Assembly: GCA_016202815.1 (NCBI GenBank)
Contig: JACQNZ010000004.1
Location: forward strand, 57,522-121,521
Length of the DNA stretch: 64,000 bases
Direction: 5' to 3'
DNA from: Candidatus Aenigmatarchaeota archaeon
GTDB taxonomy: Archaea; Aenigmatarchaeota; Aenigmatarchaeia; JACPZZ01
Shown: positions 2,648 through 60,948 of the stretch, one piece after another
Numbering within the stretch: position 1 is the stretch's first letter
Layout: the number at the start of each line of letters is the position of its first letter
Notes under the pieces: model-generated
Told to the model about the DNA's origin: nothing
What the model saw: only the letters and a program-made list of their open reading frames with translations
The model's database searches: none
Made by a program: the position numbers and the translations under genes

Positions 2648-3502
2648 ATGAACAACAGGAACATACTTCTCACTTTGTTATATCTATGCTCAATAAAACC
2701 ATTTTGTTCTAAGGAAATATCTGATATTCTGTTCGGGCATGAGCGTAATGACCGGAGTATCAAAAAATATCTTTCAAATATGAAAAAGAACGGTCTACTA
2801 AAACTCGTTGATTATCAAAATACAAAATACCCAAAATCTGAGTTCTTTGTCATTAACCTAGAAAGATTTCCTAATTGGGAAAATGACAGAGACAAAATCT
2901 TTGTTCCAGTAGGCGATCCAAACAAGGGTATAACAAGACTGTATATAGAAACGGAAAAAATTCCATTCAAGGAATTATTTGACTTACTTGGAATTTCAAC
3001 AGCCATAGGGTCTGGAAAACTGATAGCCACCATCAAAGGACGTATACCTGACGGTAGGGTAGGGTATTTAAACAGGGCAGTTCAAGAGAATGGTATGGAA
3101 AAACCCATAAACAATCTTAAAGTCGTATTCTACATTCCGCAGGGGTTAGAGGATTCGAAAGAAGTGATAGAAATACTGGAACGTCTTAAAACCCTGAAAC
3201 CTCCCAAATCAATCGGTTTCGAGTATTCTGTTAAAAAAATGAAGAAAGAAGATGAAGAAGAATTGAAGATTAAGGTGCTTATTCCGTTAGCTGTTAATTT
3301 CGGAATAAAGATAAAACAGACTCAAAACACAAAATCCCTATATCCACAGTTGATAACATACAATGGGAACGATTTGTGGACTTTTTACCCTCAACATAGG
3401 AAGGGAGAAGGCGAGATATCAATTATCAACTTCTTGAACGCCCTAGAATCTGGAAAATTCTTGGGGTTACATATAACACAGTATGAAAGGCGATTAGGAT
3501 GA
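2648..3502 (+). CDS. Hypothetical protein, possible N-terminal winged-helix domain
   Basis: 284 aa ORF immediately upstream of and overlapping cas1 start; no recognisable catalytic motif. Confidence 0.35.
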   Translation: MNNRNILLTLLYLCSIKPFCSKEISDILFGHERNDRSIKKYLSNMKKNGLLKLVDYQNTKYPKSEFFVINLERFPNWENDRDKIFVPVGDPNKGITRLYIETEKIPFKELFDLLGISTAIGSGKLIATIKGRIPDGRVGYLNRAVQENGMEKPINNLKVVFYIPQGLEDSKEVIEILERLKTLKPPKSIGFEYSVKKMKKEDEEELKIKVLIPLAVNFGIKIKQTQNTKSLYPQLITYNGNDLWTFYPQHRKGEGEISIINFLNALESGKFLGLHITQYERRLG

Positions 3503-4689
3503 AGCACCTTGTCCTAAGTGGACATGGAATAAACATCAACGTAGATAATAGCAGACTTCATGTCAAAGACGGTAGAAACGACCCAGACACAGAGCCCAAG
3601 AAATACACCTTCAAACCAAAAATGATGGACTTCGATAATGTCATTGTCTATGGTCATAGCGGAAACATAACACTCGAAGCTATGAGATGGCTCGTTAAGC
3701 AGAATGTGCAATTGACGCTGTTGGATTGGAATGGCAACTTGCTAACAAGCGTAATGCCACCGGAATCAAAACAAATCAACTACAGAATGGTTCAATACCA
3801 AGCGTATCAAACTGAAGAAAGAACAAGACTTGCCAAACTTCTCGTAGACGCTAAAATCAAGAGTAGCAAAGTTGTCCTAAGTTGGTTGAAGAGTAAGTAT
3901 CCTCAGATAAGCGATGATATCGAATACCGATACTCGAAACTACCAAGCGCAAATTCTGTAAAATACGTAATGGACGTTGAAGGCAAAGTTGCAATTGTCT
4001 ATTGGAGAGAACTTTCAAAGATATTCAACAAGACTTTTGAATTTGAAACCAGAGGTTATGGAAAGACACCTAGACCATTAGGAGCTGTAGACCCTATCAA
4101 TGTCCTTTTGAACTATGGTTATGCCGTTTTAGAAAGCGTATGTCTCAAAGCGATAAACACCGTGGGATTAGACCCTAAGATAGGATTCTTGCATGAGGCT
4201 CAAACAGGAAAGAACCCACTCGTATACGACTTACAAGAGCCTTTCAGATGGATTATTGATGTCGCTATCCTGAATGGTCTAGAGAAACGATTGTTCAAGA
4301 AGGACGATTTCATACGGACTGAGAACTATAACCTGAGGCTAAGGCCGAGTGGTGCAAAGAAGCTGGTTAGAGAGATAGAGTTGCAGATGAACAAGACTGT
4401 AGATTACAGAGGTTACAACTACAGTTGGGCATATATCATCGGTTTGAAGGCTTTGGAATTGGCGCAGTATTTAGCAGAGAAGAGGAAAACCATCGACTTC
4501 AGTAATCCTTCGCCTGAGTTGGAGATGAAGGATAACGCTGAGTTGAGACAAAAAATACTAGATTTGTCGTCTGCTAAGGCCGAGAAATTGGGGATCGGAC
4601 GAAATGAATTGCACTATCTGAGGAAGAAAGCGAAGTCAGAGAAAGCGTTTAAAATTTATGGAAAAGTAAAAGATAGACTGAGATGTTAA
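3499..4689 (+). CDS. cas1: Cas1-family integrase (casposase)
   Basis: Translation has the Cas1 hallmark block NYGYAVLES...GLDPKIGFLHEAQTGKNPLVYDLQEPFRWIID with conserved E/H/acidic catalytic positions, and a C-terminal HTH-like tail; no CRISPR repeats anywhere in window. Confidence 0.85.
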   Translation: MKHLVLSGHGININVDNSRLHVKDGRNDPDTEPKKYTFKPKMMDFDNVIVYGHSGNITLEAMRWLVKQNVQLTLLDWNGNLLTSVMPPESKQINYRMVQYQAYQTEERTRLAKLLVDAKIKSSKVVLSWLKSKYPQISDDIEYRYSKLPSANSVKYVMDVEGKVAIVYWRELSKIFNKTFEFETRGYGKTPRPLGAVDPINVLLNYGYAVLESVCLKAINTVGLDPKIGFLHEAQTGKNPLVYDLQEPFRWIIDVAILNGLEKRLFKKDDFIRTENYNLRLRPSGAKKLVREIELQMNKTVDYRGYNYSWAYIIGLKALELAQYLAEKRKTIDFSNPSPELEMKDNAELRQKILDLSSAKAEKLGIGRNELHYLRKKAKSEKAFKIYGKVKDRLRC

Positions 4690-6638: not shown

Positions 6639-6766
6639 TGGGGAAACCGTGATTTGAACACGGGTCACCGACTATCTCTAAGCTTTTCTTTCCCTCAAGG
6701 CTTTCTTTCTTGAAAAGAAAGGCTTGCCCGAAGCCGGTATCTTAGACCAGGCTGGACCATTTCCCC
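6639..6766 (-). tRNA. tRNA-Pro (anticodon CGG) candidate with about 53 nt intron after position 37
   Basis: Hand fold: acceptor GGGGAAA/TTTCCCC, D-loop AGCCTGGTCTA consensus, anticodon stem CCGGC/GTCGG with loop TTCGGG, T-arm CCGTG-TTCAAAT-CACGG, discriminator A; D-stem weak (3 bp); intron contains a 12 bp hairpin; CCA not encoded. Confidence 0.55.
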
Positions 6767-34287: not shown

Positions 34288-34464
34288 TAATTAGTTCAAA
34301 AAGTATTTATATCAGAAACATAAAATAAAAGTACTACTACAATCAGACTTCTGGACAAAGTTTGATTGATTTGAATCGGATCTGTCTGGACAACAGATTT
34401 TGATTAAGTTTGTGCGCAACTAAATTTCTTCAGAGTTGTTAATGTTTTGCTTCTTAGCGGTGAT

Positions 34465-34512
34465 TAGAAAACCTCTGGGTTTTCTAATTGAGAAAACAAT
34501 TGGTTTTCTCAA
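34465..34512. promoter_or_regulatory. Two adjacent palindromes upstream of ftsZ (TAGAAAACC-N4-GGTTTTCTA and TTGAGAAAAC-N5-GTTTTCTCAA)
   Basis: Read directly; same half-site family as the GGAAAC/GTTTCC palindromes elsewhere. Confidence 0.45.
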
Positions 34513-34615
34513 TGGACGCACCGATAAGAAATTTTTCTAAAGAATAATGGTGAAGCTGGAATAAAAAGTTTTGGGTCCAAACTTTTGGACAAAGTTTTGC
34601 CTAAGGCAAAACGTG

Positions 34616-34639
34616 CATAGGAAACTGAAGTTTCCTATG
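34616..34639. promoter_or_regulatory. 24 bp perfect palindrome CATAGGAAAC-TGAA-GTTTCCTATG upstream of ftsZ
   Basis: Read directly; related copies at 41973-41996, 56874-56897 and a half-site at 62235-62248. Confidence 0.5.
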
Positions 34640-34771
34640 AAGTTTGATCAAAAAGGCGATTTTGGCCGATCGGGGCGCATAATGTGCGCACGAAAGTTAT
34701 TGGGGGTGCGGAAGTTGAGTTTGCTTCAGAACGCCTTTGAAAAGGCGTACGGGTACAAGGAAACAGGGAAC

Positions 34772-41501: not shown

Positions 41502-41912
41502 ATGTTTAAGGGCGTAACGCCTGTAATAGCAACTGTTATGCTTATTCTGATAACGGTTGGCGTTGTCGGCCTATTTTATGGCTGGTCCTCGGGACTTTTT
41601 AACACACAGATTGAAAAGTCGGTCATAATACCGTCCGGGGCTGCCACATGCAACAACGGGTTAGTTACGGTGCGAGTCCAGAACATTGGAAGTTCAAGCA
41701 CAGTGACTGACAGCGACATCATCGTTGCGCAAATAGCGGGTAGAGAGTGCACTAAAGCTGCGTTAAGCATAGCGCCCGGACAGGCCGGCGTAATAATCAA
41801 TGCGCAGGGATGCGGTGCGGCATGCGCCACAGGCACGCTTTGCTCCGGCAATGTTGAAGTCCGCGTTGGGACGCGCACAGGCGTTGTCGAATCGACAGCG
41901 TTCTGCGCCTAA
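41502..41912 (+). CDS. Archaeal type IV pilin-like protein (class III signal peptide)
   Basis: N-terminal KGVTPVIATVMLILITVGVV matches the archaeal pilin/archaellin prepilin leader pattern. Confidence 0.5.
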   Translation: MFKGVTPVIATVMLILITVGVVGLFYGWSSGLFNTQIEKSVIIPSGAATCNNGLVTVRVQNIGSSSTVTDSDIIVAQIAGRECTKAALSIAPGQAGVIINAQGCGAACATGTLCSGNVEVRVGTRTGVVESTAFCA

Positions 41913-41950
41913 GCTTTTTTCTTTTTTAAAAAAAGAAAAACCCTCAACAA

Positions 41951-41996
41951 CGAAAATCGTTAGATTTTCGTGTGTAGGAAACTAAAGTTTCCTACA
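41951..41996. repeat. Composite double-palindrome element (CGAAAATC-GTTA-GATTTTCG followed by TGTAGGAAAC-TAAA-GTTTCCTACA)
   Basis: Read directly; homologous 46 bp element at 56852-56897. Confidence 0.6.
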
Positions 41997-48269: not shown

Positions 48270-48500
48270 AAAAAGGAGCAAAAAAGTGACGAAGGGCCAA
48301 AAAACAAAGATCAGACCGATCTAATCAACTATCTCTTGCTCTTTTTTTTCTTCTTAGCCAAATTCAAGACCTCCTTTTTACAAAAAACTTCCCGAACAGA
48401 AGTTCATATATTAATTGGGCGAGCTTCCATATAAAATGCGCGGTCGAAAAATTTAGAAAAAAGAAAAAAAATTAAAAAAAGAAAAATTTGTAAATCCTGT

Positions 48501-56531: not shown

Positions 56532-57248
56532 TTATTCCCCGCGGCACGATAATAAGCATTTTTTTATTTTGGCCCCTGATATCGGGCCTTCGCGGACCGT
56601 TTTCATGGTAATTAAATTAAATATTGTCGAGACCTTCCGTTTTGGGAGACTGCCTGTATTAATGATCGCGTCGGCTTTCTTGGCGAAAAGAGCGAACGCT
56701 TCCGGGAAGCTGTAGACAGGCTTTTCGCCTGATATGTTTGCGCTGGTGGCGGTTATCGGTTTCTTGAATTTTCCGGCAAGCGACAGCGCAAAACGATTGG
56801 CTGGTATGCGAAATGCGATTTCGTTTCTTGGCGACCCGGCCAGCTGTTTCTGCGAAAATCGGCTATTTTCGCGTATAGGAAACCGAAGTTTCCTATATTT
56901 TGGCCTTGCGACCAATGTCAACGGACCAGGCATGAATTCTTCGACCAAGCGTTTCCCGTCCTCATCAAGCGAGACATACTTTTCCGCGATTGCCGTGGAA
57001 CCGAATATAACCGAAAGCGGCTTTTTCGAAGAGCGTTTCTTGATCTTGTAAACTTTTTTTACGGCATTTCTATTCGTCGCGTCACAACCTATTCCGTAGG
57101 CTGTTTCTGTAGGATATATTACCAGGCCGCCTTTTTTCAGGATTTCCACGGCCTTTTTGATTCCTCGCGCATCAGCGCGCAAAACAAGCGTCTCCATACA
57201 GTTTTTTATGTCAGGAACATGGATTTTAAGCATGAATGAGGAGCGCAA
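56532..57248 (-). CDS. tsaC: L-threonylcarbamoyladenylate synthase (Sua5/YrdC/TsaC family)
   Basis: YPTETAYGIGCDA, PGPLTLV and ATSANISG blocks; carries an apparent in-frame copy of the double-palindrome element. Confidence 0.8.
   Translation of the reverse strand: MRSSFMLKIHVPDIKNCMETLVLRADARGIKKAVEILKKGGLVIYPTETAYGIGCDATNRNAVKKVYKIKKRSSKKPLSVIFGSTAIAEKYVSLDEDGKRLVEEFMPGPLTLVARPKYRKLRFPIRENSRFSQKQLAGSPRNEIAFRIPANRFALSLAGKFKKPITATSANISGEKPVYSFPEAFALFAKKADAIINTGSLPKRKVSTIFNLITMKTVREGPISGAKIKKCLLSCRGE
56852..56897. repeat. Composite double-palindrome element inside tsaC coding sequence (GCGAAAATC-GGCT-ATTTTCGC followed by TATAGGAAAC-CGAA-GTTTCCTATA)
   Basis: Read directly; aligns with the intergenic element at 41951-41996. 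Confidence 0.6.
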
Positions 57249-57534: not shown

Positions 57535-58155
57535 GTGTTATCCATGGGCAGGGAGTTCGACGAATCGGCGAATAGGGCGGCGGCGTATTTCACAGAGGCT
57601 CGTGAATTCGTTCAGAAAGGCGATCCCAGGGCAGCGGCAGCAGCGTACAGGTCCGGAAAAGATGCCATGGACTCTGCGGCAGGGCTGAAAGAATCCGTGG
57701 GCGACGAGATCCGATATTTAGGTTTATCCAGCCAGAATTTCCTTGCCGGCAATGAAGTCATTAATTCGCTGGCCGGCCGCATTTCACGCGCGTCAAAAAC
57801 GGCGGCGGATCGGGTTAGCGGGTATAAAGCTTCTTTTGACATCATCGCAGGAAAGCCGGTTTCATCCGACGCGTCAGCATCGGACGCCATTGAGCAAAGG
57901 GGCAAGAGCTTGACGGAAGCAGATGAGTATGCTGGAAGAACATTGGCCGGAATACGGGACGTGATAGCCGATGCGATTGAAGACGTCCGGTTGGCAACGG
58001 AAATTTCAGTCATTTTTTACGGGGAGATTCCAAGGACGGGCCTGGCAGGCGAATTATACAATAATATTGATGGTGCAGGCCGCGAGCTGGAATTGCTGTC
58101 AAGACGGGTCAACCAGATGAGATCCCTAATTGAGGGCAGGGACGCGGATCAATAA
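57535..58155 (+). CDS. Hypothetical helical protein (possible distant member of paralog family)
   Basis: Ala-rich helical protein, similar length and composition to 32211/50732/51486 ORFs. Confidence 0.35.
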   Translation: MLSMGREFDESANRAAAYFTEAREFVQKGDPRAAAAAYRSGKDAMDSAAGLKESVGDEIRYLGLSSQNFLAGNEVINSLAGRISRASKTAADRVSGYKASFDIIAGKPVSSDASASDAIEQRGKSLTEADEYAGRTLAGIRDVIADAIEDVRLATEISVIFYGEIPRTGLAGELYNNIDGAGRELELLSRRVNQMRSLIEGRDADQ

Positions 58156-59129
58156 GTTATTTCAACTTCGTCAACGCGCCATTTCGGTTTTATGTCAACA
58201 CTTCCGATTTTATTTGTACGGATTTTTTCGAACAACAGACCGGTCCAGGCTATATTCGCTCCGCAGTCGCCGGCGTATTCTTTCGGAACCGAAAAACATT
58301 TTGCGCCGCGCTCTTCGCACATTACGGCCATCATTTCACGGAACCTTTGCGACGAAGCGACGCCGCCGATCAAAAGTATTTCGTTCTTGCCTGCATGAGC
58401 CAAGGCGCGTTCCGTGACTTCCGTTAGCATGGAATACATCACTTCGTTCAACGAAAAAATTACGTCTTCCATTTTTTCGGTTTTTATTTTTTTCAACGCC
58501 GCCGTGACGATACCCGTAAAGCTAACGTCCATGCCTTTAACGACGTACGGCAGATCAGTCCACCTACCGCGTTTTGCTATCTCATCAAGCTTCGGGCCGC
58601 CCGGAAATTGCAGGCCTGTCTTGCGCGCGAAAAAGTCTTGTGCGTTTCCAATCGGGATGTCCAGCGTTTCGCCGAGCACGCGGTAGCGTTTGTTTGCAAG
58701 AGAAACGATTTGCGTGTTGCCGCCGCTGATATACAGGCAGACAGGGTCTTTTGCGTTTGTCGTTAATTTTCCTATTTCTATGTGGGCTATGGCATGATTA
58801 ACAGGTATTAACGGTTTGTCATTATTTGTTGCCAGTTTCTTTGCAAATTCCATTCCCGCCAATAAGCATGGAGCGAGCCCGGGGCCGGCTGCGACGGAAA
58901 TTAAATCGACATCGGAGATTTTAGTATTTGCTGTTTTTAGCGCATTTTCTAAAACTTTTTCCGCAATTTCCCTGTGGTGACGGGCAGCTTTCGACGGCTC
59001 GATCCCCGAGCCTTTCGGCGGCGTGAAAACGTCTTTTTCATTGGCTAGAATATTTCCACCATTGTTGGCGATGCCGACGCCGAACGTATGGCTAGTCGAT
59101 TCTATCCCGAGGCAAATCCTTTCAACCAT
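58149..59129 (-). CDS. kae1: tRNA N6-adenosine threonylcarbamoyltransferase Kae1
   Basis: N-terminal ICLGIESTSHTFGVGI, metal-binding HAIAHIE region and C-terminal GGVASSQRFRE block typical of Kae1/TsaD. Confidence 0.85.
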   Translation of the reverse strand: MVERICLGIESTSHTFGVGIANNGGNILANEKDVFTPPKGSGIEPSKAARHHREIAEKVLENALKTANTKISDVDLISVAAGPGLAPCLLAGMEFAKKLATNNDKPLIPVNHAIAHIEIGKLTTNAKDPVCLYISGGNTQIVSLANKRYRVLGETLDIPIGNAQDFFARKTGLQFPGGPKLDEIAKRGRWTDLPYVVKGMDVSFTGIVTAALKKIKTEKMEDVIFSLNEVMYSMLTEVTERALAHAGKNEILLIGGVASSQRFREMMAVMCEERGAKCFSVPKEYAGDCGANIAWTGLLFEKIRTNKIGSVDIKPKWRVDEVEITY

Positions 59130-60864: not shown

Positions 60865-60948
60865 GCCTTCTCTTTTTAAAAAAAGAGAATCCTTAAGGGA
60901 AGAGAAAAAAACTAGGAAAATCCTTAAGGGAAAAGAAAAACTTGTTGG

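Follow-up and report, generated by a model that had tools for sequence, protein, structure and literature searches.

How does a stretch of DNA built of two perfect palindromes come to lie, in frame, within the coding sequence of an essential tRNA-modification gene of the t6A pathway? The question is raised by a 64,000-nucleotide stretch of contig JACQNZ010000004.1 of a Candidatus Aenigmatarchaeota archaeon (hereafter the window), in which the reading frame of tsaC/sua5 runs through such an element. The original prediction held that a double palindrome of about 46 bp had been inserted into this gene, in the manner of the palindromic mobile elements that enter genes in some bacteria, and that a homologous copy lies in a spacer elsewhere in the window. 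In-frame genic copies of short palindromic repeats are documented in bacteria (REPs and RPEs); our literature searches turned up no account of such repeats from DPANN archaea, Aenigmarchaeota included. Here we compare the gene with its orthologues, the element with its relatives in other genomes, and the whole with known classes of repeat. We conclude that the inserted 48 bases are very probably one copy of a non-autonomous dispersed hairpin repeat that is confined to one clade of groundwater Aenigmarchaeota, and which may be regarded as analogous to bacterial REP/BIME sequences and, in its genic form, to the Rickettsia palindromic elements.

An in-frame insertion in tsaC/sua5

The gene and the element within it lie as follows:

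56532..57197, minus strand: tsaC/sua5, single YrdC-domain threonylcarbamoyl-AMP synthase, 221 aa (Pfam PF01300, 2.6e-46)
56850..56897, plus strand: two-hairpin unit in tsaC, 48 nt, consisting of CT, hairpin 1, G and hairpin 2
56852..56872, plus strand: hairpin 1 of the tsaC copy, GCGAAAAT-cggct-ATTTTCGC, 8-bp perfect stem
56874..56897, plus strand: hairpin 2 of the tsaC copy, TATAGGAAAC-cgaa-GTTTCCTATA, 10-bp perfect stem, carrying the conserved core

The open reading frame called mechanically for tsaC reaches 57248 from a TTG start and is 17 codons too long; from Met18 its product is identical to a 221-aa protein (P0001) of a Candidatus Aenigmarchaeota MAG. The next relatives have 45-72% aligned identity and 197-221 residues, the closest of them being 203-205 aa long and 16 residues shorter. 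In an alignment of 19 sequences, the residues YRKLRFPIRENSRFSQ that stand between “RPK” and “KQLAGSP” in the window protein form a 16-residue insert seen in no other sequence: precisely these residues are missing from each of the 18 Aenigmarchaeota orthologues (45-72% identity), none of which has a loop of the same length. These residues, Y101-Q116, are encoded in frame by the two-hairpin unit, which lies antisense to the gene and whose 48 nt are free of stops in the coding frame. The main elements of the original prediction are thereby borne out, namely the two perfect hairpins (8 and 10 bp), the open frame across them, and a loop given as about 12-16 residues shorter in homologues, the difference being exactly 16. 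Its details need adjustment, as the element is present at 56852-56897 but the exact insert spans 56850-56897, and the peptide first given for it, KLRFPIRENSRFSQKQ, is slightly out of register with the aligned insert YRKLRFPIRENSRFSQ.

The protein appears to accommodate this segment. Every invariant residue of the family is kept in the insert-bearing Sua5 across the 19 aligned sequences, and homologues in the PDB have a gap at the position of the insert. An AlphaFold2 model of the protein has a mean pLDDT of 90.9 and superposes on the TsaC2 and Sua5 crystal structures with TM scores of 0.81-0.84; the insert, alone in having low confidence (pLDDT 61-64), sticks out between strands 93-99 and 127-130. 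Judged by this model, the Sua5 fold is intact despite the insert. The insertion site is, from the alignment, an indel-tolerant loop, because the same columns carry other small indels in the orthologues. The insert is known from a single genome; run SRR12113383, assembled independently in Logan, yields the same tsaC sequence as the NCBI MAG. A second t6A gene, kae1/tsaD (58149-59129, minus strand), lies about 1 kb from tsaC, and this arrangement is conserved in two related loci, L115 and L117.

These two loci are syntenic with the window over about 13 kb around tsaC and provide the empty sites. With a caret marking the junction, their DNA reads AAA CCG AAG^AAA CGC and AAA CCG AAA^AAA AGA, and the filled site in the window reads AGG CCA AAA[48 nt]AAA CAG. 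Against these two empty sites the boundaries of the insert are unambiguous and there is no target duplication. Orthologues and empty sites together support what the original prediction had proposed, the in-frame insertion of a palindromic element of mobile type into tsaC.

Three copies in the window

Where the original prediction counted two copies in the window, there are three, together with a related pair of hairpins:

41948..41996, plus strand: intergenic copy C2, 49 nt, 71.3 bits, between a pilin-like ORF and a DUF424 gene
34590..34639, plus strand: intergenic copy C3, 50 nt, 63.1 bits, upstream of ftsZ
34463..34513, plus strand: two further 11-bp hairpins of the GAAAAC/GTTTTC type, 24.6 bits

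The copy claimed at 41951-41996 is indeed homologous. It has the same two-hairpin layout (ACGAAAATC-gtta-GATTTTCGT, G, TGTAGGAAAC-taaa-GTTTCCTACA; 41950-41996) and differs from the tsaC copy by paired compensatory changes in both stems. The third copy, C3, was found in a pattern search by its core at 34618-34637 and is enclosed by an outer stem (34578-34584 with 34640-34646). A covariance model of the family (R1, described below) gives the tsaC copy 58.8 bits and finds in the window the three units and the related hairpin pair (34459-34516), and nothing else. The 16-base core TAGGAAAC-N4-GTTTCCTA has three matches in the window against 0.04 expected, a count of three or more being reached in 0 of 100 shuffles, and perfect hairpins of at least 8 bp number 18 against 4.3 in shuffles. 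Each of the three units folds into two adjacent hairpins on either strand, as RNA and as DNA; in the tsaC copy a single G separates them. The folds are far better than those of shuffled sequences for both nucleic acids (z of -3.5 to -7.4 for the units as RNA and -5.7 to -7.7 for the window units as DNA), in answer to the folding that had been proposed as a check of the element.

The surroundings of the intergenic copies hold further hairpins. The spacer upstream of ftsZ has five consecutive perfect hairpins of the GAAAAC/GTTTTC type (34463-34639), a BIME-like array that includes C3; its first two hairpins also occur in L117:1-50. An A/T-rich hairpin at 41916-41940 precedes C2. It belongs with perfect hairpins of T-run/A-run type, for example TTTTTCTTTTT-taa-AAAAAGAAAAA, that are found at 41916-41940, 60868-60889 and 6701-6721; the TTTTTCTTTTT-taa-AAAAAGAAAAA hairpin comes after the stop of an ORF that ends at 41912, and the motif also precedes units in locus L072. 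These T-run/A-run hairpins may be bidirectional terminator-like structures. One subfamily of units (C3, L003, L041, L088 and L135) is flanked by a conserved AAGTTTGATCAAAAG-like motif. This motif makes an outer stem with a CAAACTT that lies upstream, and in L041, L088 and L135 it is found just ahead of a start codon.

A family of hairpin pairs maintained by compensatory change

The repeat is by no means confined to the window, as a reading that allows it no mobility would have it: many copies come from groundwater metagenomes and from no fewer than five related MAGs. A scan for the core in one genome per prokaryotic species (596 Gb) matched at least 113 stretches. Among the matches listed, most are single unrelated bacterial sites, at the level of chance for 596 Gb, and at least 16 exact-core matches fall in five MAGs of Aenigmatarchaeota type (at least seven in JAZDLW01, three in JACOVS01, three in JACPAF01, one in JACPZZ01 and two in CAYZCD01). 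A stricter pattern found 11 further family members in groundwater metagenomes, and a scan of viral contigs gave a single unrelated GC-rich match. An Rfam search at gathering thresholds of the window and 14 related loci returned tRNAs only, with no family matching the hairpins.

After orientation, the copies can be aligned with hardly any gaps. A unit measures about 48-51 nt and consists of C(A/T), hairpin 1 (8-9 bp), a G and hairpin 2; in the alignment a 5' (A)ACA comes ahead of hairpin 1, which is closed by ACG/CGT or GCG/CGC. Hairpin 1 is free in sequence and always paired. From genome to genome the sequence of hairpin 2 is strongly conserved, with the form yrTAGGAAAC-N4-GTTTCCTAyr and covarying variants; the covariance-model search recovers the variants CACAGAAAAC, CACAGGAAAT and CAAAGGAAAC, each with a matching 3' arm. 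In the family alignment 96.7% of stem cells are paired, against 27-46% in controls with slid partners; double changes occupy 65 cells against 20.9 in shuffles (65 being reached in 0 of 500) and affect 9 of the 19 pairs. The alignment demonstrates compensatory change that keeps the hairpins paired. G-U pairs are almost absent, so that both strands stay complementary, and the wobbles that do occur (3 of 418 cells, in mixed directions) do not permit a strand to be assigned to the unit.

The covariance model R1 was built from this alignment and run on the window and on related loci totalling 184 kb. In the latter it detects about 40 separate two-hairpin units, a density that is biased upward, since the loci were chosen by motif. 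For the source genome the scope is the 64 kb of the window, and genome-wide copy number and the genic-to-intergenic ratio are extrapolated. Twenty of 38 units are 48 or 51 nt long and thus multiples of three; the 48-nt length of both genic copies (the second is described below) is therefore not significant evidence by itself.

Genomic context and dispersal

By context, 30 of the 38 units are intergenic, two are truly genic, three lie in spurious or over-extended ORFs and three at contig edges. The intergenic units sit between tandem (16), convergent (11) or divergent (3) genes, singly or in arrays, mostly just downstream of housekeeping genes, and are oriented about equally both ways relative to the neighbouring gene. 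Their neighbours include genes for L37ae, prefoldin, eIF2-alpha, SBDS, the thermosome, a DUF655 protein and a glycosyltransferase. At four sites (L005:3493, L041:3516, L039:2267 and L051:6584) the TAG of hairpin 2, or CTA for the other strand, is the stop codon of the adjacent ORF; at L005 the TAG/CTA of the hairpin may stop both of two convergent ORFs.

Among the three syntenic genomes, the unit in tsaC is present solely in the window, a unit upstream of kae1 solely in L115, and an array of about 200 nt with about seven hairpins in the spacer upstream of thyX solely in L117 (L117:9042-9425), the corresponding spacers in the window (48276-48497) and in L115 (L115:15165-15439) being free of it. 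Units are also nested in the loops of other hairpins, in L132 (compared with L021 and L010) and in L117. Near-identical units together with their flanks recur in non-syntenic loci: C3 resembles L003, and C2 resembles L021, L072 and L010. We considered whether C2, C3 and these look-alikes in other MAGs are orthologous loci and rejected this, there being no synteny and no shared genes. The compared genomes establish a dispersed repeat family whose occupancy varies between orthologous sites.

One further palindrome was considered for membership. Loci L046, L068, L079, L102, L133 and L142, from MAGs of Nanoarchaeota/Woesearchaeota, carry TAGGAAACC-NN-GGTTTCCTA, which is preceded by GGAAGGTGATTGT in L046, L102 and L133; in L046, L068 and L142 it directly adjoins a tRNA gene or sits within one. 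This looks like a separate conserved feature, and it was set apart from the family.

A second genic insertion and its junctions

The second genic unit is found in a different genome, JAZDLW01, and its insertion is independent of that in tsaC:

L043:7583-7635 (JAZDLW010000021.1): two-hairpin unit in rtcA (RNA 3'-phosphate cyclase), 51.9 bits

The rtcA protein (P0121, 358 aa) is longer by exactly 16 residues, TQKTSVSCARFATQTF, which the in-frame 48-nt unit encodes and which are absent from eight orthologues (41-77% identity) and from the P. horikoshii structure. Removal of the 48 nt restores the Lys codon of the closest orthologue, P0122 (DIKTSA against GVKVSA). In sequence the rtcA loop is unrelated to the tsaC loop. 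Its unit has two stem mismatches, which suggests that the rtcA copy is the older of the two genic insertions.

The two sites share a flank. Insertion took place at ATCA^AAAC in rtcA and at AAAA^AAAC in tsaC, so that on the strand of the element both read GTTT^unit^T, with the unit antisense to the gene and no duplication; the intergenic copies have mixed 5' flanks. With two events, the GTTT flank is a lead, and three sources are conceivable for it: a target preference like that of IS200/IS605 elements, microhomology, or A-rich codon usage. At the level of sequence, the comparisons for the two genes establish that the unit entered tsaC and, in a second genome, rtcA; in each case exactly 48 nt were added, in frame and free of stops, and the target was not duplicated.

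The search for a mobilising enzyme

A regular-expression scan of about 1.07 Mb, of which about 0.3 Mb is from Aenigmarchaeota, found no ORF with the HUH-Y1 transposase motif, and none of the units was found to adjoin a tnpA or tnpB. An ORF flanked by two units at L051 was considered as a REPtron and rejected, as it encodes a small zinc-ribbon protein with no Pfam match; the other genes flanked by units were likewise set aside as transposase candidates, being housekeeping genes (L37ae, prefoldin, eIF2-alpha, SBDS, thermosome and DUF655). The window also encodes a Cas1 homologue of 396 aa (3499-4689, plus strand; PF01867, 8e-63). Near it there is no Cas2, other cas gene or CRISPR array, and none of its neighbours gives a Pfam match. 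The gene may be of solo Cas1 or casposase-like type, and nothing observed ties it to the hairpins.

Origin of the insertion and alternative explanations

In the mechanism that we propose for this dispersed hairpin repeat, the unit would move as a structured single strand, through a structure-specific HUH enzyme of IS200/IS605 or RAYT-like type or through microhomology-mediated copying. The insertions that survive in essential genes would be only those that are a multiple of three, stop-free and located in indel-tolerant surface loops, and the tsaC copy would be transcribed and translated into a tolerated, disordered loop of 16 residues. The intergenic copies might act as hairpins at mRNA 3' ends or might simply be selfish. 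We also put forward, as a possibility that we hold to be doubtful, a more specific version: a REPIN-like population of two-hairpin, 48-nt units that spreads as single strands independently of RAYTs, 3' of GTTT and without duplication, and that repeatedly makes 16-residue loops in essential RNA-processing enzymes, Sua5 and RtcA. If true, this would give archaea a counterpart of the RPE phenomenon in Rickettsia, and reduced DPANN genomes a way to gain new protein segments.

The hairpins could instead be cis-regulatory or terminator elements, either sites for dimeric regulators or 3'-end structures of RNA, that arose or were kept for the benefit of the host, with the tsaC copy a chance by-product of recombination between sites of this kind and not of transposition. 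Much about the family would sit well with such a role: the conservation of hairpin 2 across genomes, the closeness of units to the ends and starts of housekeeping genes, the C3-type copies whose AAGTTTGATCAAAAG flank lies beside start codons, and the lack of orientation bias together with the near absence of G-U pairs, which fits a role at the level of DNA or one symmetric between strands. Yet hairpin 1 changes freely in sequence and stays paired, unlike a protein half-site; 11 sites are convergent and two lie within genes, and occupancy differs between orthologous regions. We consider this origin unlikely, noting that a host function of the hairpins and their mobility are not mutually exclusive. 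It is also conceivable that the loop in Sua5 has been co-opted, the basic segment (four Arg and one Lys among its 16 residues) providing a new contact, with tRNA or Kae1 for instance, and being kept by selection on the protein. The place of tsaC in the t6A pathway, the kae1 gene about 1 kb away and the still perfect hairpins would agree with this, but a recent insertion would account just as well for perfect palindromes, the loop is found in one genome only and is modelled with low confidence, and the rtcA loop is unrelated to it in sequence; we regard such co-option as quite improbable.

Two readings would do away with the loop or with the insertion itself. Archaea splice bulge-helix-bulge (BHB) introns, including those in mRNAs, and the 48 nt might be removed as such an intron or skipped by translational bypass, leaving a mature Sua5 that lacks the loop. 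The segment is strongly structured, and pairing is possible between the exon bases GGCCA and UGGCC on its flanks; the predicted folds, however, are two simple hairpins in which the arrangement of a 3-nt bulge, a 4-bp helix and a 3-nt bulge is not seen at the junctions, and the rtcA copy has no comparable pairing of its flanks. That both genic copies are stop-free multiples of three, which would be needless if they were removed, speaks to the same effect, albeit weakly given the 20 of 38 units with such lengths. Removal or bypass is a very remote prospect. Repeats can misassemble and the source is a MAG, so the insert might be an artefact of assembly or binning, a chimeric join through the repeat; but the identical gene is present in the NCBI MAG and the independent Logan assembly (SRR12113383), the insert is exactly in frame with both flanks colinear with the orthologues, and a different MAG has the analogous insertion in rtcA, leaving an artefact scarcely credible.

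The insertion of a dispersed hairpin repeat, which we favour, has several implications. An archaeal family with two insertions for which filled and empty sites are available is a concrete system in which to seek the mobilising enzyme, and one that lets us test whether streamlined genomes gain new protein loops from such elements. It is also a warning to those who annotate conserved marker genes in MAGs or build phylogenies from them. What is known of t6A synthesis is unchanged by the insertion in tsaC.

Comparison with known systems

The likeness to bacterial in-frame palindromic mobile elements on which the original prediction drew holds as a functional analogy and does not extend to membership of any of their families. 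The closest parallels are the REPs and BIMEs, among which the bacterial GTAG REPs supply a TAG as the stop codon of flanking ORFs and include intragenic, in-frame copies (Di Nocera et al., PMC3733652). The archaeal units share with REPs and BIMEs hairpins of 21-24 nt with stems of 8-10 bp and loops of 3-5 nt (PMC3733652), subfamilies set apart by compensatory stem changes, the formation of arrays, a location mainly between tandem or convergent genes, a terminal TAG used as a stop and occasional in-frame units. They are likewise multi-copy and mostly extragenic stem-loops, with three units in 64 kb and, among the matches listed, three to seven exact cores per related MAG. The host, however, is a DPANN archaeon, and the TAG differs in position: here an RTAG lies within the stem of hairpin 2 (hairpin 1 ends in CGTG or CGCG), whereas REPs have an unpaired GTAG or CGTC tag at one end. 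The unit also differs from a REPIN, an inverted REP doublet that forms one long hairpin, in that it consists of two different adjacent hairpins that are predicted to fold independently. Nor did the motif scan of about 1.07 Mb find a RAYT, of which REPIN-RAYT systems have a single-copy gene with the repeats on its flanks. A 2018 survey of complete genomes recorded none of these transposases, thought to be the movers of bacterial REPs, among archaea, whose Y1 proteins were of the IS200 type only (PMC6006769).

In their genic form the units recall the RPEs, palindromic repeats that lie in frame in unrelated housekeeping genes and whose added peptides seem compatible with the fold (PMC10969869); the insertions in tsaC and rtcA are likewise in frame, with the fold apparently preserved. 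RPEs, however, are about 100-150 bp long and belong to alpha-proteobacteria, whereas the archaeal units are 48-51 nt long, have no match in Rfam and no visible sequence relationship to RPEs, and are genic in two of about 40 cases. A 2024 review of MITEs covers archaeal MITEs and the in-frame phenomenon in Rickettsia, with no archaeal analogue of the latter (PMC10969869).

Among mobile elements proper, IS200/IS605 and its miniature derivatives, such as the haloarchaeal PATEs, resemble the unit in having a hairpin at each end and no target-site duplication, and both genic insertions lie directly 3' of a single tetranucleotide, GTTT, in n=2 events; IS200/IS605 is, moreover, the sole Y1 transposase class found in archaea in the 2018 survey (PMC6006769). 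The unit differs in that no tnpA or tnpB was found beside any copy and in being far shorter than the known derivatives. With the archaeal MITEs of Sulfolobus and Haloquadratum it shares being non-autonomous, dispersed, small and able to occupy genes, but it does not have their spanning terminal inverted repeats or target-site duplication: neither end of the unit is an inverted copy of the other, and the empty and filled sites show no duplication. The most fitting place for the unit is within the general class of dispersed short palindromic repeats, as a new representative from the archaea.
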